Positions 9,372 to 56,819 of a stretch of DNA of 64,000 bases are shown here, piece after piece. Below the pieces are notes generated by a model, which had not been told where the DNA came from, made no database searches, and saw nothing but the letters and a program-made list of their open reading frames with translations. The position numbers and the translations under genes are program-made. Numbering within the stretch: position 1 is the stretch's first letter; the number at the start of each line of letters is the position of its first letter. This DNA is from Patescibacteria group bacterium. GTDB taxonomy: Bacteria; Patescibacteriota; Microgenomatia; UBA12405. The DNA is taken from contig WARW01000022.1 of assembly GCA_013387215.1 (NCBI GenBank), positions 238,417-302,416 on the forward strand, written 5' to 3'.

Positions 9372-9400
9372 ATTATAGTATGTTCGTCAAAGCGGGTCAA
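9372..9400 (-). promoter_or_regulatory. Sigma70-type promoter for rpoBC: -35 TTGACC, 17-nt spacer, -10 TATAAT
   Basis: On the minus strand, TTGACC is the revcomp of 9395-9400 and TATAAT is the revcomp of 9372-9377. The spacer is exactly 17 nt, and the start codon lies about 60 nt downstream. The element overlaps the stop of the upstream gene. Confidence 0.4.
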
Positions 9401-10314
9401 TAAGTAGTTTGTGATGAATTTGTTGCCGTATTAGTTGGGGTTAAAGTTTTTGCCGAAGAACTGGCTGTTGGAGTTACAGTTTTAGTAGATTTTGCCGAAA
9501 CTGTGGCTAAACAAGTTCTACTAGTGCAAGTAATACTGCCATTGGTGCAGCTGCAAGCGTTGCAGCCGTCGCTAGCGACAAAATTTTGACCTTCATTATA
9601 GTGTTTATCGTTTAAGTCACAACCGGCCCCAGTTTGAACTGCAGTGGATGGAGTGGAAGTTATCTCTGGAGTACTGGTTTTTGTTAAATTTGTGACTGGC
9701 TTACTGCTAAAATTAGTATAGGCAAGAGCTGAGGCTACGCAGAGAAAAAGAATTAGTGAAAAAATGAAAAATATTTTTGGTATAGGACTTGCTTTTGGTG
9801 TTGGTGGCTCCACAGGAGGAACAAAGTCGGAAATTGGAGGAAGATCTGATTTAAAAGCAGGTTCAGGTTGAGGAGCTGGTGTTGGTTCAATAACTGGCTC
9901 TGGTTCAGGTATGGTTTCAACTGCTGGAGTGGAAATGGGTGCAGATTCAACAACAGGGGCTGGTGCGGCCTCAACTACTGGCGGATTGGTAACTGGAGTC
10001 AACACCTCTGCTTCATTTTCATTTTCATCAACTTCAATATTTTCATTCAAAACTAATTGTGGAGGAGGAGTTTCGAGAGACAAGACAGGCTCTTGAACTT
10101 TTGGCTGTTCAATTGGAGTTATAGGCGTTTCAGATACTGCTGGAGTTCCTTGGGTCACTGGAGAAACTGGATTTTCTGCTGGTTCTGGCGGGGCATTTTT
10201 AATCTCTTGAGCGTATTTATCTAAAATAGCTTGATATTGCTTATTGGCATCAATATTTTGATCTTCTTGATCACCTGGGACAGGATTAATATTATTCATA
10301 AATAAATATCTCAT
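9397..10314 (-). CDS. Proline-rich membrane protein with a C-terminal extracellular Cys-rich domain
   Basis: 305 aa. It has long P/E/V-rich low-complexity stretches, one TM helix (IFFIFSLILFLCVASALAY) and a C-terminal 8-Cys module (GAGCDLN...CNACSCTNGSITCTSRTC). Confidence 0.6.
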   Translation of the reverse strand: MRYLFMNNINPVPGDQEDQNIDANKQYQAILDKYAQEIKNAPPEPAENPVSPVTQGTPAVSETPITPIEQPKVQEPVLSLETPPPQLVLNENIEVDENENEAEVLTPVTNPPVVEAAPAPVVESAPISTPAVETIPEPEPVIEPTPAPQPEPAFKSDLPPISDFVPPVEPPTPKASPIPKIFFIFSLILFLCVASALAYTNFSSKPVTNLTKTSTPEITSTPSTAVQTGAGCDLNDKHYNEGQNFVASDGCNACSCTNGSITCTSRTCLATVSAKSTKTVTPTASSSAKTLTPTNTATNSSQTTY

Positions 10315-10360: not shown

Positions 10361-11527
10361 ATGAATGATCTGATAAAATTGGCAATGCAAAAAACCGGTA
10401 GCGTGTTTATTAAAACCTTTGGCTGTATTCAAAATACGGCAGATTCAGAAAGAATCAAAGCTTTCTATTGGGACATCGGATACAAAGAAGTTGATGATTG
10501 GAAAAAGGCCGATTTAGTGGTCATAAATACTTGTATTGTTAGGGAATCGGCTGAAAACAGAGCTTATGGGCTTATTAATGAAATTGATAAGATCAACCGA
10601 AAATCTTCAAAAAAAATCGAAATTATTGTGACCGGGTGTTTGGTCGGCAAGGCTAATTTAGATAAAACCGGTAAAAAGATAAATAAATTGAATCGTGATT
10701 TTCCAGAAGTATCGGAATTTTTACCTATAGAAAAAATTTCTTTCCAAATTAAACCAATTCGAGATTTTAAAAATATTGCCCTGATTCCAATTAGCAGCGG
10801 CTGCAGCAATTTTTGCTCATACTGTATTGTCCCCTATGCCCGCGGACCAGAAATATCAAGAAAATTTGAAGATATTTTGACTGAAGTAGACGAAGCAATT
10901 AAAAATGGTTTTAAGAGTGTTGTATTAATTGGCCAAAACGTTAATTCGTATGGTTCTGATTTAGTCAAAGAAAATGAATATATTCTTTTAGACGGCAAAA
11001 AGATTTTACCAGTGATGGTGAAAAGCATGGGAAAGGCAAGAATACCAACACTTTTCCCATATCTTTTGGAAGAAATTGCAAAGAAAAATTTAGAAAAAAT
11101 AAGTTTTGTCAGCAGTAATCCTTGGGATTTTTCCGATGAACTTATTGAAGTAATCGCTAAGTATCCAAATATTGATAAATTACTGCATTTGCCGATTCAA
11201 TCGGGAGATGATGAAATCCTAAAAAGGATGAACCGAGGTTATACAACTGATGAATATTTAAAATTAGTCGAAAAAATCCGAGGTAAAGTAAAAGATGTTC
11301 AATTCAGCACCGATATTATTATCGGTTTTCCAGGCGAAGATGAAGCGTCATTTAACAGAACTGTGGAAGTATGCAAAAAGGCAAAATTCCAAATCGGATA
11401 TTTAAATAAATATTCCCCAAGAAAAGGAACTCTTTCCGCACAAATATACGAAAATGATGTGCCTCAAAGTGAAAAGAAAAGAAGATGGACTGTGTTAAAC
11501 GATTTAATAAATAAGAAAATTAATTAG
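10361..11527 (+). CDS. MiaB/RimO-family radical-SAM methylthiotransferase. At 388 aa it is short and probably lacks the TRAM domain.
   Basis: The N-terminal MTTase domain shows FGCIQNTADSE. The radical-SAM motif is SSGCSNFCSYCIVPYARG, a CxxxCxxC. Confidence 0.85.
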   Translation: MNDLIKLAMQKTGSVFIKTFGCIQNTADSERIKAFYWDIGYKEVDDWKKADLVVINTCIVRESAENRAYGLINEIDKINRKSSKKIEIIVTGCLVGKANLDKTGKKINKLNRDFPEVSEFLPIEKISFQIKPIRDFKNIALIPISSGCSNFCSYCIVPYARGPEISRKFEDILTEVDEAIKNGFKSVVLIGQNVNSYGSDLVKENEYILLDGKKILPVMVKSMGKARIPTLFPYLLEEIAKKNLEKISFVSSNPWDFSDELIEVIAKYPNIDKLLHLPIQSGDDEILKRMNRGYTTDEYLKLVEKIRGKVKDVQFSTDIIIGFPGEDEASFNRTVEVCKKAKFQIGYLNKYSPRKGTLSAQIYENDVPQSEKKRRWTVLNDLINKKIN

Positions 11528-11531
11528 AGTC

Positions 11532-11596
11532 TTATAGCGGAAAAGTGGCGGGTCCCCCAGAGGGGGGTAATTAATTTATTAAAACAGCACGCAGGT
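11532..11596. repeat. Repeat copy A, left boundary of cassette unit 1. It consists of an outer IR TAGCGGAAAAG, a GC hairpin GGGTCCCCCAGAGGGGGG and an inner IR AAAACAGCACGCAGGT.
   Basis: Seen directly. The outer IR (11535-11545) and inner IR (11581-11596) are exact reverse complements of 11968-11977 and 11945-11960. The GC hairpin followed by TAATT could also terminate the upstream MiaB-like gene. Confidence 0.7.
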
Positions 11597-11603
11597 CTAG
11601 AAG

Positions 11604-11945
11604 TTACAATAGAATGTTACTCCTAAGGTTTATGATCCTTAGTTTCGCGTCAGATGGGTACTCAAGGTTGACACTGTGGTCGCAAAGACTATTCACCGAT
11701 AAGGATACACACTGGTTGACTCTATATTTGTCTTGCATATCGACAATAGGGTCAAGACAGAGACTTTCCGTTCCCACAGACCCGTTGTACACACTCAGTC
11801 CTATTTTCCAACCTCTACTGGACCAATAATTGAATACCCTGCATTCTATTGTTTCCCCCTCGTCATTCTTGTACACCACGGTTGCATCTTTGCCCCCTTC
11901 GATATTAGTGTTCATCAAGTCCATGAGGCTCTCCTTTGCTTGCAA
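11604..11945 (-). CDS. Hypothetical protein, the cargo of IR-bounded unit 1. The region is GC-richer than the flanks.
   Basis: 113-aa ORF with a TTG start overlapping the inner IR; an alternative ATG lies at residue 8. There is no TM helix. Local GC is clearly higher than the genome. Confidence 0.4.
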   Translation of the reverse strand: MQAKESLMDLMNTNIEGGKDATVVYKNDEGETIECRVFNYWSSRGWKIGLSVYNGSVGTESLCLDPIVDMQDKYRVNQCVSLSVNSLCDHSVNLEYPSDAKLRIINLRSNILL

Positions 11946-11977
11946 CCTGCGTGCTGTTTTTTCCGTATTTTCCGCTA
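11945..11977. repeat. Repeat copy A', right boundary of unit 1: the inverted partner of copy A, without the GC hairpin
   Basis: ACCTGCGTGCTGTTTT at 11945-11960 and TTTTCCGCTA at 11968-11977 are the reverse complements of the copy A segments. Confidence 0.7.
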
Positions 11978-12120
11978 TTTAAAAGAACTGTTTGCATATT
12001 CTAGGAATTAAAGGGCAGCTAAAGCCATTATAGAATAATGCAACTATCATTTTATGAATAATTTTTATGATGTATATTACAAACATGTAAGAATACGGTA
12101 AGATAGGGATTTAGTATCAA

Positions 12121-12180
12121 CATAGCGAAAAGAGGGTCCCCAGAAGGGGTGTAATTTAACCTTAAGCACGGCACGCAGAC
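12121..12180. repeat. Repeat copy B, left boundary of unit 2. It consists of an outer IR CATAGCGAAAAG, a GC hairpin GGGTCCCCAGAAGGGG and an inner IR GCACGGCACGCAGAC.
   Basis: It has the same tripartite architecture as copy A and a related sequence. The shared cores are ATAGCG(G)AAAAG, GGGTCCCC-AGA-GGGG-TAATT and GCACGCAG. Confidence 0.7.
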
Positions 12181-12186
12181 AAAAAA

Positions 12187-12669
12187 TCAGTTAAGTCTTT
12201 CAACCAGACAACTTCCTTCCTGAGGATAAGTAAACAAAACAGTCTTATCCTCCATGGATAAGGTGATAACATAGAAATCCACCTTGAAGTCGGATGACGG
12301 GTTGACAACTTTTTTTTGGGTCACAGTTGATTCATCAACAGCATCATAAGAGATAAGCCAGTCGTTTCCAACTGAAGTCTCAGGGAAATTGGCCAGGCCA
12401 ATCATATACTTTCCATTTTTGTCTGATTCGACTTTAGCTTTATAGCCGGGAGGCACTTTGCAAGTACCATTGGTTACAGGGGCTGGCTTAGTGACGATTC
12501 TAGTTGCTTGGATGTAATGCTGCTGAGTTGGAACCGAGGTTGGATTGGATTCATAAACCATGGCTGAAGCGGTGCGGGCTGTTTTAGGGCTTGGGTTCAT
12601 GAGCAGTAAAAATGCTGCAACAACTGCCGTGATAAATACGAAGATGGGAACCAGAAACTTAGCTTTCAT
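12187..12669 (-). CDS. Secreted or membrane-anchored hypothetical protein, the cargo of IR-bounded unit 2
   Basis: 160 aa with an N-terminal signal/TM segment (MKAKFLVPIFVFITAVVAAFLLL). GC is higher than in the flanking genome. Confidence 0.55.
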   Translation of the reverse strand: MKAKFLVPIFVFITAVVAAFLLLMNPSPKTARTASAMVYESNPTSVPTQQHYIQATRIVTKPAPVTNGTCKVPPGYKAKVESDKNGKYMIGLANFPETSVGNDWLISYDAVDESTVTQKKVVNPSSDFKVDFYVITLSMEDKTVLFTYPQEGSCLVERLN

Positions 12670-12712
12670 TAGTCCAGAATCCTTTCTATTTATGGGTTAG
12701 ATTACTTGAATA

Positions 12713-12804
12713 GTCTGCGTGCCGTGCCGGAAGAGAAAACAAAAGATAAGGATTTATCCTCTATTTTCTCTTTCGGAAGGCCGCAAACTGGTCTTTTCGC
12801 TATG
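12713..12804. repeat. Repeat copy B', right boundary of unit 2. It consists of an inner IR GTCTGCGTGCCGTGC, an imperfect hairpin of about 22 bp and an outer IR CTTTTCGCTATG.
   Basis: The inner and outer segments are exact reverse complements of copy B at 12166-12180 and 12121-12132. The internal hairpin is CCGGAAGAGAAAA...TTTTCTCTTTCGG. Confidence 0.7.
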
Positions 12805-12924
12805 TTAAAGAACGGATAATAAGCATGATTTAGGGCATAAAATCCTAAATTGGCTTATATGATATATTGTAACATATATTACAGGATAGTCAATATATAA
12901 ACAGTTGGTTTAAATTCAAAATAA

Positions 12925-12985
12925 TAGCGGAAAGAATGGACTATTTTAGTATATTTGCTGGCGAACGGAAGTCACATTTTTCCGC
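12925..12985. repeat. Solo compact copy of the same repeat family, TAGCGGAAAG...TTTTCCGCC. It may be an empty site or a degenerate element.
   Basis: The outer-IR motif (revcomp match GCGGAAA/TTTCCGC) recurs with only about 40 nt between the arms and no cargo ORF. Confidence 0.5.
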
Positions 12986-13124
12986 CATTTATATTGTTTT
13001 TAGCCTTAAATCCATTTGGTGGCCGCTTGTGACCAGAATGAAGAGGTATCAAACAATTCAGTCTAGAAAGAAAAATATAGGGTTAGATTAAGATTGAGCA
13101 ATAATTCAGTAAGATTAAGTTATC

Positions 13125-14006
13125 TTAGATACTTAAAGAAGATGCAAATGAAAGGCTTGTGTGATCGTTAGGTTTTAGTTGCCTAATAAATATTTTCTCT
13201 GATTTTAAGTTTTTCTTTACTGTTGAATTAGTTACTGTTCCGAATTTTATATGATAATTAATTTTATTGATTTCACAAAATTTGGAAACTATTTCAGCAC
13301 ATTCATTATAAAAATTCTTGTAATCCCTATACTCCGCGACAGCTGAGTTATAATTTAACCTTCCAAAAACAATTTTATCTACAAAGGAAACTTTTTCTAA
13401 TATTTCTAATAAATTTTGTTTAACTAAATTTGGTGTTGGATATGGTTCCATACTTACCCAAGTCTTTAATCCTGACTCATGAAGTCTTTTTAAAGTTTTT
13501 ATTCTTTTTAGAAATGGTGATGCTTTCGGTTCAAATATGGATCTAAATTTTTCATTCAAAGAAACTATTGTGATTCCGTATTCATTTTTATTACTATATT
13601 TTTTTGTATCTATTAAATCTTTTGGATAAACACCTTTTGTTAAAACAGTACATCGGATTTTATCTTTGTTCAGTCTTGCAATTACTTTTAACGTCATTTC
13701 TTCAACCTCTGGCTGTTCATACATAAACGGATCAGTACTAAAACAAAGGTGTACAAATTTAATCTTATCTTTAAGTTTTGGTATTTCTTTATCTAATAAC
13801 TCAATTGCATTTGCAACAATTTTTGGTTTAATCCAATCTTGATAATTTTTAATTACACCACATCTCTTCTTCATCATCATTGCATAGCAAGGATACATAC
13901 ACCCATGAGAACATCCTTCAACATGATTCAAGCAATAATCTGCATATTCGACTCCACTTTTATAAAGTAAAGATTTTCTGTAAATCTTCTGCAATTTCTG
14001 TTTCAC
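13125..14006 (-). CDS. Radical-SAM-fold protein of the SplB/COG1533 type with an atypical three-Cys motif, Cx3Cx3C in place of Cx3Cx2C
   Basis: N-terminal KSLLYKSGVEYADYCLNHVEGCSHGCMYPCYA parallels the COG1533 block ...NPYxGCxHxCxYCYA with one extra residue before the third Cys. The downstream blocks ITIVSLNEKF...EPKASPFLKRIKTLKRLHESGLKTWVSMEPYPTP fit the SPL-family core. The gene is very AT-rich. Confidence 0.65.
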   Translation of the reverse strand: MKQKLQKIYRKSLLYKSGVEYADYCLNHVEGCSHGCMYPCYAMMMKKRCGVIKNYQDWIKPKIVANAIELLDKEIPKLKDKIKFVHLCFSTDPFMYEQPEVEEMTLKVIARLNKDKIRCTVLTKGVYPKDLIDTKKYSNKNEYGITIVSLNEKFRSIFEPKASPFLKRIKTLKRLHESGLKTWVSMEPYPTPNLVKQNLLEILEKVSFVDKIVFGRLNYNSAVAEYRDYKNFYNECAEIVSKFCEINKINYHIKFGTVTNSTVKKNLKSEKIFIRQLKPNDHTSLSFASSLSI

Positions 14007-14085
14007 TAGATTAGTTTAGACAATTTTAATTAAAAGGTCAAAGGTGTAATATATAACTCATTAAATAAGTTATTATTATTACGAC

Positions 14086-15222
14086 ATGACTATAAAGAAA
14101 CCTAAAGATTGGCCTAATGTTTCATATAAAACTTGGAGATATGAAAAACAGACAAAAATGAAACACCAAGTTCTAGATAATTATTTTCCGCAATGGTTAC
14201 AAATTCTTAATAAATATAACAAAAAATTAAATTATATTGATGGTTTTGGAGGATTAGGAGCCTATCACACAAAAAATGATATTGAAAATAATGCCTACAA
14301 CTCAAAATCATTTGGTTCTCCGATTTTAGCAATAAAGACTATTAATAGGCTTATAAGTGAAAATAAAGTTACAAAAGTGAATGTTTTAATTATAGATAAG
14401 GATAAAAATAATATTGCCAACATTCAAAAGATTTTATTCGAGGAAAATATTTCTCCTTTAAATTATGTAAATTTTATTAATGGAGATTTTGATGTAAAAA
14501 TTAATGAGTTTTTAGATAAACTGGACAATATTGCTCCCACCTTCTTTCTTATTGATCCATTTGGTTATTCTCAAATTAAGATTAGTACGATTAAAAGAAT
14601 CATGGAGTTGGAAAAATCGGAGATCTTTTTAAATTTTATGTACAATGCAATACAAAGATGGATTAAAAAACCTGCATTAGAGGCAAGATTTAATGAACTA
14701 TTTGGTTGTGAAGATTGGAAACAATATGCAGATGAACCAACAAAAGCTAAAGAAGAAAAACTTGTAGCTTTGTTTAAAAAGGAATGTGAAACATTCGCTG
14801 AATATGTTACTCCATTTAGGTTGAGAAACCCAAAAAGCGATAGGCCTTATTATTATCTTTTTCATTTATGCAATGATGATACTGGTTGTGTAAAAATGCG
14901 AGCTAGTTTTGCTCGTTTTAACAAAGGGTTTACAGATTATTGCGGATCCGACCAACAAATGTGTTTATTTGATAAAAACTCAACAAAAAAACAAGTCTGT
15001 GTAGAAAAAATTATTAAATATTTTTCCGGACAAAATATAAGTTATAAAGAATTTCGAAAACAAATGTTAAAGCTGTCTGATTATCATACAGAAAGGGATA
15101 TTATTAGGACTTTACAACATTTAGAAAAAAGAAAATCTATTACAATAGCTCCTTCAGATGGAAGAAAAAGAAAAACTGGAATATTAAAAACTGATATTAT
15201 TAAAATTCCACATTTATCTTAA
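14086..15222 (+). CDS. Methyltransferase-fold-like partner protein, resembling the three-Cys-motif partner family TcmP
   Basis: 378 aa. IDGFGGLGAY resembles SAM-binding motif I (FxGxG). FLIDPFGY resembles the D/NPPY/F motif IV of amino-MTases. The C-terminal region is Cys-containing. The gene is divergently paired with the three-Cys rSAM-like gene. Family assignment is from memory of the TcmP description and needs an HMM check. Confidence 0.55.
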   Translation: MTIKKPKDWPNVSYKTWRYEKQTKMKHQVLDNYFPQWLQILNKYNKKLNYIDGFGGLGAYHTKNDIENNAYNSKSFGSPILAIKTINRLISENKVTKVNVLIIDKDKNNIANIQKILFEENISPLNYVNFINGDFDVKINEFLDKLDNIAPTFFLIDPFGYSQIKISTIKRIMELEKSEIFLNFMYNAIQRWIKKPALEARFNELFGCEDWKQYADEPTKAKEEKLVALFKKECETFAEYVTPFRLRNPKSDRPYYYLFHLCNDDTGCVKMRASFARFNKGFTDYCGSDQQMCLFDKNSTKKQVCVEKIIKYFSGQNISYKEFRKQMLKLSDYHTERDIIRTLQHLEKRKSITIAPSDGRKRKTGILKTDIIKIPHLS

Positions 15223-46003: not shown

Positions 46004-46203
46004 ACATACTCACCTCCTTAAAACACAAAAGCCTGATTATTAAAGAACAAAAATTGTCTATCTTGCGTATAAAATAGCAATTTGTAAGTAGCAGATCTTA
46101 TCATATTTCCAAAAAAAATGCCGACTGGAGTTTGAATATTAATATTCAAAACCTATCGGCATTGTGATAATTTATCAACTTAAATGGAAAGAAAAATATC
46201 GTA

Positions 46204-46839: not shown

Positions 46840-47064
46840 TTTCAAATCCCCTCCTTTTATATTTAGTTGATAGATTTTAAAAGAACGACTAATAAATTAT
46901 TATTCTTTGCAAAATTAAAGAATTGATTTATTTTTGGTTAATTGCCAAAGAAAAAAAGTCAAAAAAACTGCTTTTCTTTTGTAATTAAAATATAAAATCC
47001 GTAAAACTAATGTGTGCCCTAAAAAGGGAGAGAATTGAGCAGAAGCCCAATCCTCTTTTTGTTT

Positions 47065-47565
47065 TCAGTTCAAAAACTGATCAAGGTGGTTTAACAAGTG
47101 GTCAAGCTTCAACAACACTGTAGGAATTTGATCGGAATATTTAAGTTCAAGGCAAAACTCGACAACATAAGCATCAGTAATAATGCGATCGATGTCTTGA
47201 GTCAAAGTCTCATTCATCTTTTGAAGATATTTTTGATCTTCTTTTCCGGTTCGACGACGAAGCCAAGATTCAAAATTTTTGACTTCATCATCCCTTTCAT
47301 ATTGAGGAAATAATTCCCAAGCCGCAGCCGTTCTTCTAGAGAATAATCCCGGATTTCCAGTCATATCCAAAAGAGCATCAATTGTTGATAAACGATAATT
47401 GTTTATTTCTTCCTCTGCCAATGGATTACTCTCGATTTTAACGTAATAATCGGCAAGTATAGCAACTGCTTTATTGAGCATCTCGTCGGTTATTTTAGTA
47501 AAACCTATTCTTTTGGAAAAGAAATCAACCAGATATAAATAAGATTCTGAAATATTTGTCAACAT
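47065..47565 (-). CDS. Hypothetical protein
   Basis: 166-aa ORF with the SD AAGGAG and predicted helical composition. Confidence 0.5.
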   Translation of the reverse strand: MLTNISESYLYLVDFFSKRIGFTKITDEMLNKAVAILADYYVKIESNPLAEEEINNYRLSTIDALLDMTGNPGLFSRRTAAAWELFPQYERDDEVKNFESWLRRRTGKEDQKYLQKMNETLTQDIDRIITDAYVVEFCLELKYSDQIPTVLLKLDHLLNHLDQFLN

Positions 47566-47759: not shown

Positions 47760-48152
47760 TTAAAATAATGATTTCTGACTCCACTGATTAAAAACAGCAA
47801 GGTCTTCATCACCAAATAAAGCTTGATAACATTCGTTTCTAACCAAAAGAGATTCATCGAGCTCTAAAAAATCCAAAACCCAATAAATCGTTTCGGTTTT
47901 TAGTTTAAAAATAGTGTCTTGAGACTCACGATCATCATAAGTTTTAATGTCGATTCGATGCAGTGTTTTGATTAATGCATCAATTGCTTCGTCCGCTTCT
48001 TGATATTTTTTTAGTCCTAAGTGTTTAGCAAGATATTCCAGCGCGTTTTGATGAGCTTTTGGGAAATAAATTACCTTAAAGTTCTCAGCTCCGCCCATTT
48101 TTTCGATGAGTGTAGAGTAAAACTCCTTTTCGTGATTAGACATATGCAACAC
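47760..48152 (-). CDS. Hypothetical protein
   Basis: 130-aa ORF with the SD GAGAGGTG. Confidence 0.5.
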   Translation of the reverse strand: MLHMSNHEKEFYSTLIEKMGGAENFKVIYFPKAHQNALEYLAKHLGLKKYQEADEAIDALIKTLHRIDIKTYDDRESQDTIFKLKTETIYWVLDFLELDESLLVRNECYQALFGDEDLAVFNQWSQKSLF

Positions 48153-48342
48153 CTCTCTTTTTATTCCAAAAATATTTCTATTTTTGGTATGTACACAAAG
48201 AGTTTTACGGATTTTTAAAGAACAAACCTTTTTTTAAAGCGCTTTGCTTTTAAAAGTTTTTAATTTAATGATAATTAAATTATGTGCCGTATATATACTC
48301 TTAATTACCAATGAAATCAAGATATAGGTTATATTTTTTATA

Positions 48343-56257: not shown

Positions 56258-56357
56258 AAATTAATTATGCAATAAATTTAAAATAAAAACACTTTTTGAT
56301 AAAAAAACCCGCTAAAAGCAAAATGTTTAGCGGGTTTGGCCCAGATCCATATAGTTT

Positions 56358-56772: not shown

Positions 56773-56819
56773 AAAAAACCCGCTAAATTTTTTATTTTTA
56801 GCGAGTAAGGACTCAAAAA

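Follow-up and report, generated by a model that had tools for sequence, protein, structure and literature searches.

We focused on a cluster of small genes in a 64,000-nucleotide stretch of contig WARW01000022.1, from a Patescibacteria group bacterium. This whole stretch is referred to below as the window. A MiaB homologue search placed the host in Candidatus Shapirobacteria, within the Candidate Phyla Radiation (CPR)/Patescibacteria. The window carries two full units, at positions 11534-11978 (unit 1, W1) and 12119-12806 (unit 2, W2). In each, two nested inverted repeats, one outer and one inner, surround a minus-strand open reading frame (ORF). A preliminary description of this DNA had noted these nested repeats, together with a GC hairpin between the left outer and inner repeats of both units and a different hairpin on the right of unit 2. 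All were found again, and each arm is complementary to its partner at every position. W1 and W2 share the GC hairpin GGGTCCCC(C)AGA(A)GGGG, which stands beside the left outer arm. The features are listed below, by unit and in the direction of the ORFs.

Unit 1 (W1)
11979-11988, minus strand: GTTCTTTTAA, directly before the outer 5′ arm
11968-11978, minus strand: outer 5′ arm (AUAGCGGAAAA; outer repeat ATAGCGGAAAA), pairing with 11534-11544 at 11/11 positions
11945-11960, minus strand: inner 5′ arm (AAAACAGCACGCAGGU), complementary to 11581-11596 at 16/16 positions and paired in both the minimum free energy (MFE) and the centroid fold
11931-11936, minus strand: Shine-Dalgarno sequence AAGGAG, 8 nt past the inner 5′ arm
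11604-11924, minus strand: ORF of 106 aa from the ATG at 11924, type 1, a probable small all-beta protein of the unit family; the stop codon is 7 nt from the inner 3′ arm
11581-11596, minus strand: inner 3′ arm (ACCUGCGUGCUGUUUU), paired in the MFE and centroid folds
11550-11567, minus strand: GC hairpin of the 3′ untranslated region (UTR) (CCCCCCUCUGGGGGACCC), between the inner and outer 3′ arms
11534-11544, minus strand: outer 3′ arm (UUUUCCGCUAU), partner of 11968-11978
Unit 2 (W2)
12866-12893, minus strand: predicted sigma-70-type promoter TTGACT-16-(TG)TACAAT, with 10/12 consensus matches and the TG present, about 60 nt upstream of the 5′ arm
12792-12806, minus strand: outer 5′ arm (AACAUAGCGAAAAGA), complementary to 12119-12133 at 15/15 positions, with GTTCTTT just before it
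12727-12776, minus strand: A/U-rich hairpin of the 5′ UTR, between the outer and inner 5′ arms; found in type 2 only and kept in units A1 and B1 of related genomes
12713-12727, minus strand: inner 5′ arm (GCACGGCACGCAGAC), complementary to 12166-12180 at 15/15 positions
12187-12669, minus strand: ORF of 160 aa, type 2, with an N-terminal hydrophobic helix followed by a predicted beta domain; the stop codon is 6 nt from the inner 3′ arm
12166-12180, minus strand: inner 3′ arm, partner of 12713-12727
12134-12149, minus strand: conserved GC hairpin of the 3′ UTR (CCCCUUCUGGGGACCC)
12119-12133, minus strand: outer 3′ arm, partner of 12792-12806
Third copy
12924-12988, minus strand: best read as what is left of a type-1 unit; it retains the outer arms and a degenerate leader of type 1 but has lost its inner arms, ORF and GC hairpin

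The preliminary description gave the two ORFs as 113 and 160 codons. The longer stands. The shorter had been counted from an upstream TTG and comprises 106 codons from the ATG that follows AAGGAG. The compact third copy, which had been taken for an empty site, is indeed present and folds at -19.7 kcal/mol (z = -4.05). However, the preferable reading is a type-1 unit that has decayed, and not an empty attachment site, because the leader of the copy is closest to that of A2, a type-1 unit of a related genome, and because of its position. The relic leader is 68% identical to the A2 leader and 47-55% identical to the leaders of the other units. It lies upstream of the type-2 unit, where type 1 is found in the related loci L004 and L007. 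W1 would then be a relocated or duplicated type-1 copy. Mismatch-tolerant searches, and nhmmer searches with profiles of the 5′ and 3′ modules, found no unit motifs outside 11.5-13.0 kb in the window. An Rfam search at the gathering score and a tRNA search of the window gave no matches. When 11450-13100 was searched against Rfam at E<=5, the sole match was a chance snoRNA.

Eight full units of one architecture are present in three genomes. These are W1 and W2 in the window, A1 and A2 in L004/L005 and B1-B4 in L007. The outer arms (ATAGCGRAAA), inner arms (GCACRCRG) and hairpin of the A and B units match those of the window. Read along the ORF strand, all eight consist of an outer 5′ arm, a linker, an inner 5′ arm, a Shine-Dalgarno sequence and ORF, an inner 3′ arm, an AT-rich linker, the GC hairpin, a linker and an outer 3′ arm. 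The flanks define orthologous types: type 1 comprises W1, A2 and B2, type 2 comprises W2, A1 and B1, and B3 and B4 are additional. In type 2 the linker between the outer and inner 5′ arms holds a long A/U-rich hairpin. The gap from the inner 5′ arm to the Shine-Dalgarno sequence is 8-12 nt (27 nt in W2), and that from the stop codon to the inner 3′ arm is 4-8 nt across units. The GC hairpin is CUUCCCCUUCUGGGGA or a close variant in every unit; its C4/G4 stem core is invariant (8/8) and its loop is variable. The orientation of the ORF relative to the asymmetric features of the flanks, namely the 3′ GC hairpin and the upstream promoter, is identical in 8/8 units.

W2, A1 and B1 (the latter two in L004 and L007) share a conserved promoter of the form TTGAnn-16-TGTTACAAT, which lies some 60 nt upstream of the 5′ arm. 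Conservation of the orthologous type-2 units continues for some 60-90 nt past the 5′ arm, into this promoter and the leader. Since the predicted promoter stands upstream of the 5′ arm, the arms would lie within the transcription unit, in the UTRs. We did not adopt the GC hairpin as an intrinsic terminator, because no U-tract follows it on the mRNA strand. A terminator-like match on the plus strand at the GC hairpin stands behind MiaB in unit 1 only.

The motif GTTCTTT(W)AA is found directly 5′ of every outer 5′ arm, with G(T/C)AC(N)TTAA(C/A) in relatives; GTAC.TTAAC is the form that precedes the arms in the L004 and L007 units. On the minus strand of the window it occurs at 11979-11988, 12804-12813, 46039-46048, 46877-46886 and 48214-48223. 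Other small orphan minus-strand ORFs, at 45.7-46.9 kb, also have it upstream. GTTCTTTWAA is not enriched across the window (48 matches compared with 38 expected), and only the exact or near-exact intergenic copies on the minus strand are notable. The motif could be a promoter -10/transcription start site element, an RNase site or an operator.

Folding of the minus-strand RNAs of W1 and W2 placed the outer and inner stems in both the MFE and centroid structures (z = -3.5 and -7.1, respectively). In the folds, the Shine-Dalgarno sequence is outside the long-range stems. We assessed covariation using a gapless, anchor-mirrored alignment (A3) of the four arms of all eight units, with 33 proposed pairs. 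In this alignment 90.2% of cells are paired, compared with 34-50% when partners were slid by 1-3 columns. Both sides have changed in 15 of the 33 pairs. None of 500 shuffles matched the observed pairing, the double-change counts or the covariation score (0/500). Complementarity between the arms flanking the ORF is kept by compensatory change. The long-range RNA stem around each ORF, raised as a possibility in the preliminary description, is consistent with both the folds and the covariation.

Three further properties favour a structure that acts on the mRNA strand, as RNA rather than as DNA. At non-Watson-Crick positions in the main stems, about 12 pairs are G.U in the mRNA sense and 3 are A.C (raw totals 13 and 3). 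The sense strand folds better than the antisense strand in B3 (-66.9 against -48.8 kcal/mol) and B4 (-62.2 against -48.1), and moderately better in A1, B1 and W2. Finally, the arms of the type-2 5′ hairpin (12727-12776) are 83% complementary as DNA; a continuous helix of about 19 bp forms as RNA only, with G.U pairs.

The backbone of the locus is conserved in relatives and comprises S7, S12, RpoC, RpoB, a Cys-rich protein, MiaB (plus strand), YceG (minus strand), a 65-aa ORF, RuvX and a sortase. The units of L004/L005 and L007 stand between GlmS and YceG. MiaB abuts YceG in L008, L012, L015/L016 and L017/L018. In L013, GlmS alone lies between MiaB and YceG, and in L014 an unrelated 258-aa gene follows MiaB. 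Neither module remnants nor empty sites were found at the same locus in six other relatives. The nhmmer profiles of the 5′ and 3′ modules found copies only at this locus in the window, L004 and L007, and none in nine other relative loci. The preliminary description had considered that relatives might carry the same ORFs at this locus without the repeats; relatives without the repeats show no units. Scanning a genome contig collection with a narrow pattern (ATAGCGRAAAN{1,10}GGGTCCCCN{3,5}GGGG) gave only two chance matches, in Bacillus and Glycocaulis; the window itself was not returned, and the source genome is thus absent from that collection. A scan of metagenome contigs with the 3′ module pattern gave three matches, all without partner arms and attributable to chance.

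A tree of RpoB and MiaB groups the three unit-bearing genomes in one clade (100% bootstrap). Identity is 85-87% within this clade and about 80% to other genomes. Hence, because the distribution of the units is limited to one clade, only one origin and vertical descent are needed. The number of units per locus is 0, 2, 2 plus a relic, or 4, and the order of types 1 and 2 in the window differs from that in L004 and L007. Contigs from independent samples agree: L001 is identical to the window, and L004 and L005 have the same motif positions.

Among Shapirobacteria, the MiaB-YceG junction is a hot spot of variable content, and five relatives have nothing in it. It spans 11528-15213 in the window, 11144-15850 in L004, 11141-16073 in L007 and 11085-13153 in L013. 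In L004 and L007 the junction contains GlmS and units, with a 424-aa orphan also present in L004. The window has units and a divergent gene pair, and no GlmS. This pair (13125-15222) consists of a radical S-adenosylmethionine (SAM) protein (13125-14006, minus strand) and the three-Cys-motif partner protein TcmP (14086-15222, plus strand). TcmP matches TIGR04474 (E = 8.5e-52) and is the PADLOC candidate PDC-M30A. Exact look-ups of the radical SAM protein, and of MiaB from the window, found no record. The pair has a GC content of 27-28%, far under the genome average, is absent from all relatives examined and is probably a mobile or defence-like island. On the other side of MiaB, a 305-aa Pro/Thr-rich protein (9397-10314, minus strand) has a C-terminal Cys-rich module weakly like pacifastin/VWC domains. 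It is found beside MiaB in all relatives examined.

All eight unit ORFs are intact, each with a Shine-Dalgarno sequence, and encode products of 105-160 aa. The two proteins of the window, called cargo in the preliminary description, are not unrelated: they are distant paralogues. Links by phmmer form a chain that runs from W1 through B2 to A2, from B2 through B3 to B4, and from B4 through W2 and B1 to A1, making one very divergent family. Positions W, D/N-P and Y-P...C are common to the protein alignment. The family is recognised only by comparing ORFs inside the units of related loci. Hidden Markov model (HMM) searches of both window proteins against Pfam, NCBIfam and PADLOC, as proposed earlier, gave no family match. 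A word-indexed search for homologues of both returned only the query itself, as did a full HMMER run of the 160-aa protein against 1.84 billion representatives. An N-terminal hydrophobic helix is present in four of the eight products (W2, A1, B1 and B4) and is predicted to be a signal or membrane helix. AlphaFold single-sequence models of the two window proteins are all-beta but of low confidence (predicted local distance difference test scores of 47 and 61). The family probably consists of small all-beta proteins.

We compared the conservation of flanks and ORFs. Between orthologous units, the 5′ and 3′ modules have 58-75% nucleotide identity, and MiaB has 70-72%. The ORFs have 51-55% nucleotide identity, against a shuffled baseline of 50%, and 17-32% amino acid identity; they are saturated. 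GC content of the ORFs is 43% in the window units, compared with 35.6% for the whole window, and 43-50% across all three genomes. Their GC content at third codon positions (GC3) is 41-59% in all three genomes, compared with 26-36% in neighbouring housekeeping genes. The GC excess, from which the preliminary description concluded that the ORFs look foreign, is real. A foreign origin is doubtful, because all three genomes of the clade retain the same high GC and GC3. Elevated GC would instead be a feature that has been maintained, which does not argue for recent acquisition from outside. GC-biased gene conversion and selection on mRNA structure are possible causes of the high GC3.

Given the observed anatomy, conservation, covariation, strand asymmetry and phylogenetic distribution, we consider it probable that the units are tandem paralogous small genes with pairing 5′ and 3′ UTRs, forming an RNA-level control element, and are not mobile DNA cassettes. 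Both arms would be present on one transcript. In the mRNA, the 5′-UTR arms would pair with the 3′-UTR arms to form a bipartite stalk of about 26-36 bp enclosing the ORF. Such a stalk would hold the start and stop codons side by side, with the Shine-Dalgarno sequence and start codon, and the stop codon, each a few nucleotides away from one and the same end of the helix. Selection would act on this RNA clamp. The arms and hairpin would be kept and would co-vary, and the protein sequence would be largely free to change.

We infer that the clamp functions as a cis-acting post-transcriptional element, and four options are given in order of preference. The clamp may shield the leader and the ends of the mRNA from RNases. 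In the hbs mRNA of Bacillus subtilis, a 14-bp helix that joins the 5′ UTR to the 3′ UTR modulates RNase access and ties stability to translation (Braun, Durand & Condon 2017; PMC5737220). The likeness is an ORF of about 100 codons and a long-range 5′/3′-UTR helix in one mRNA. The units differ in that their helix is bipartite, with outer and inner parts of 26-36 bp in total, and closes tightly around the ORF. Further additions are the conserved GC hairpin and a second hairpin in the 5′ UTR of type 2. In addition, the clamp is common to a paralogous family and kept across species with covariation. Alternatively, the clamp may be an RNase III processing stalk that frees defined monocistronic mRNAs from the tandem array. 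Long-range helices of this kind flank 16S and 23S rRNA and are cleaved by RNase III (e.g. PMC6582327). There too, segments hundreds of nucleotides apart pair and join the ends of a functional RNA, and tandem units stand in one array. However, the RNA enclosed by the units would be a small-protein mRNA. The third option is that terminating ribosomes melt the inner helix and are released beside the start site, which would favour re-initiation. The fourth is that the invariant UCCCC-containing hairpin acts as an anti-Shine-Dalgarno-like modulator, by analogy with icaR. In the icaR mRNA of Staphylococcus aureus, the 3′-UTR motif UCCCCUG pairs with the Shine-Dalgarno sequence and leads to RNase III cleavage (PMC3868564). 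The conserved hairpin of the units contains UUCCCCUU. In contrast to icaR, the long-range stems of the units leave the Shine-Dalgarno sequence uncovered, and are longer and perfect.

Several points weigh against a clamp formed by the UTRs. The folds of W1 and A2 are equal on either strand. The G.U excess (12 compared with 3) is suggestive, not overwhelming, and a DNA-level inverted repeat would equally keep bare complementarity. The sample is eight units from three related genomes. Changes inherited by descent and a mirrored outer-arm indel also enter the covariation counts. No convincing -35/-10 pair was found for the type-1 units, and on the mRNA strand neither the GC hairpin nor the outer arm is followed by a canonical U-tract terminator. 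Transcription start sites, 3′ ends and processing are predictions.

The three interpretations offered by the preliminary description treat the repeats as DNA. The units might be small mobile cassettes bounded by inverted repeats (mobile insertion cassettes or ORF-carrying miniature inverted-repeat transposable elements), moved in trans by a transposase encoded elsewhere. They do bracket a small passenger ORF with terminal inverted repeats and form tandem arrays; their number at the locus varies, the order of types 1 and 2 differs between the window and L004/L007, and ORF GC is over the genome average. Nonetheless, we regard mobility as very unlikely. A search for target-site duplications in the flanks came back empty, and the outer arms are not bordered by a direct repeat. 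The inverted pairs always enclose one homologous family, and not variable ORFs, at this locus only, with no copies elsewhere in the window or in nine relative loci. The units are limited to a monophyletic group, consistent with vertical inheritance, and relatives have no empty sites with repeat remnants. Conservation of type 2 passes the inverted repeats into a common promoter and leader, as if the units had their own promoter. Phage and plasmid blastn searches and viral contig scans found nothing similar. The G.U asymmetry indicates RNA, and, as noted previously, the neighbouring genes include no transposase or recombinase. An inverton, in which a recombinase flips the ORF segment between inverted repeats to turn expression on or off, has similarly little to recommend it. 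Perfect inverted repeats of 15-16 bp, 350-660 bp apart, with a promoter outside them, would suit such a switch, as would products that are probably surface or secreted proteins, the usual targets of phase variation. Conversely, the ORF has the same orientation in 8/8 units of three genomes, and contigs from independent samples are identical (L001 and the window) or share motif positions (L004 and L005). No invertase or recombinase is among the neighbouring genes. A recombination site would also leave unexplained the nested double pairs of repeats and the pairing that depends on G.U alone (B3, B4 and the type-2 hairpin), with the mismatches being mostly G.U on the mRNA strand. It is barely credible that the repeats are ordinary intergenic palindromes of the repetitive extragenic palindrome/bacterial interspersed mosaic element kind, flanking ORFs by chance. 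They are short, GC-rich palindromic repeats in intergenic DNA. However, elements of that kind number from tens to hundreds across a genome, beside unrelated genes; the module is found at this locus only within 64 kb, and nhmmer found no further copy in the loci of relatives. Moreover, ordered nested pairs always surround one homologous ORF with fixed Shine-Dalgarno and stop spacing.

Two other explanations are compatible with part of the data. The flanks could act mainly at the DNA level, providing homology through which paralogous units recombine or undergo gene conversion, so that their ORFs are shuffled and diversified; this is unlikely as the main explanation, and compatible with an RNA clamp. 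Conserved flanks around saturated ORFs, the relic and the reordering in the window would fit, and GC3 of 41-59%, against 26-36% in housekeeping genes, fits GC-biased conversion. The W2 ORF also scores slightly nearer to B4 than to its flank orthologues, though such protein scores are too weak to establish that exchange took place. However, homology arms need no mutual complementarity, yet complementarity is conserved and compensated, and, at 11-20 bp, the arms offer very little length for homologous recombination. The units could also resemble type I toxin-antitoxin mRNAs, in which a 5′-3′ fold-back keeps the message inert until 3′ processing. In hok/sok mRNA, long-distance pairing between the 5′ and 3′ ends is conserved by covariation. 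The same is true of the aapA1/IsoA1 toxin mRNAs (PMC5416894), and covarying long-distance 5′-3′ pairing across a gene family is the hallmark common to these systems and the units. In those mRNAs the fold-back also sequesters the Shine-Dalgarno sequence, and an antisense RNA accompanies the toxin. The units are, in addition, tandem small genes. We nevertheless consider this explanation highly improbable. The products of 105-160 aa with predicted beta strands are not hydrophobic toxic peptides of <60 aa. The Shine-Dalgarno sequence is not sequestered by the long-range stems, no antisense promoter stood out in a sequence-based scan, and an antisense RNA is not evident.

An integron cassette array was considered and rejected. 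In integrons, attC is an imperfect palindrome of 55-140 bp (R''-L''...L'-R') with a GTTRRRY core at each junction; cassettes are mostly promoterless, and intI, attI and Pc are adjacent. The arms described here are 350-660 bp apart and enclose an ORF, there is no GTTRRRY core, and unit 2 has its own predicted promoter. An HMM scan of the neighbours identified RpoB, a VWC-like protein, MiaB, a radical SAM protein, TcmP, YceG and RuvX, none of which is an integrase. The preliminary description had reached the same view.

We also noted two other repeats in the window. A perfect 15-bp long-range inverted repeat, AAAAUCCGUAAAACU / AGUUUUACGGAUUUU, is found on the minus strand at 46994-47008 and 48201-48215 and is unrelated to the units. 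It encloses an operon of three ORFs encoding orphan proteins (48152-47760 and 47565-47065 in the direction of reading, that is 47760-48152 and 47065-47565, with a small membrane peptide between them). The repeat is paired in the MFE and centroid folds of the 1261-nt minus-strand RNA, and GTTCTTTAA directly precedes the 5′ arm at 48201-48215, as in units 1 and 2. This arrangement suggests that the genome may use 5′/3′ clamps more widely. Separately, a palindromic terminator-like element (ACCCGCTAAA...TTTAGCGGGT) occurs in two copies, at 56307-56337 and 56776-56806, 438 nt apart around a short intergenic/small-ORF stretch. The two copies are probably a bidirectional terminator that has been repeated, with no relation to the units.

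Functional pairing between 5′ and 3′ UTRs in bacteria is known from only a handful of cases in single genes (such as hbs, icaR and type I toxin mRNAs). The pairing of the units is unusual in being bipartite, common to a whole gene family, conserved above the coding sequence and found in a CPR host. Tentatively, the units may represent a novel class of cis-acting mRNA scaffold in the CPR, an 'ORF clamp'. In such a class, the stalk and accessory hairpins would make a prokaryotic closed loop and/or an RNase III-processed unit, the clamp would be selected while the surface or secreted protein diversifies almost freely, and the principle could possibly operate elsewhere in the genome. The units provide a comparative data set for end-to-end mRNA pairing in decay, processing or translation, and a candidate for a new RNA motif in the CPR/Patescibacteria, a poorly understood group. 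They also caution that an ORF between inverted repeats need not be mobile DNA. For the organism, the clamp would be a marker of fast-diversifying small proteins, partly secreted or membrane-anchored, which may matter for an episymbiotic lifestyle.

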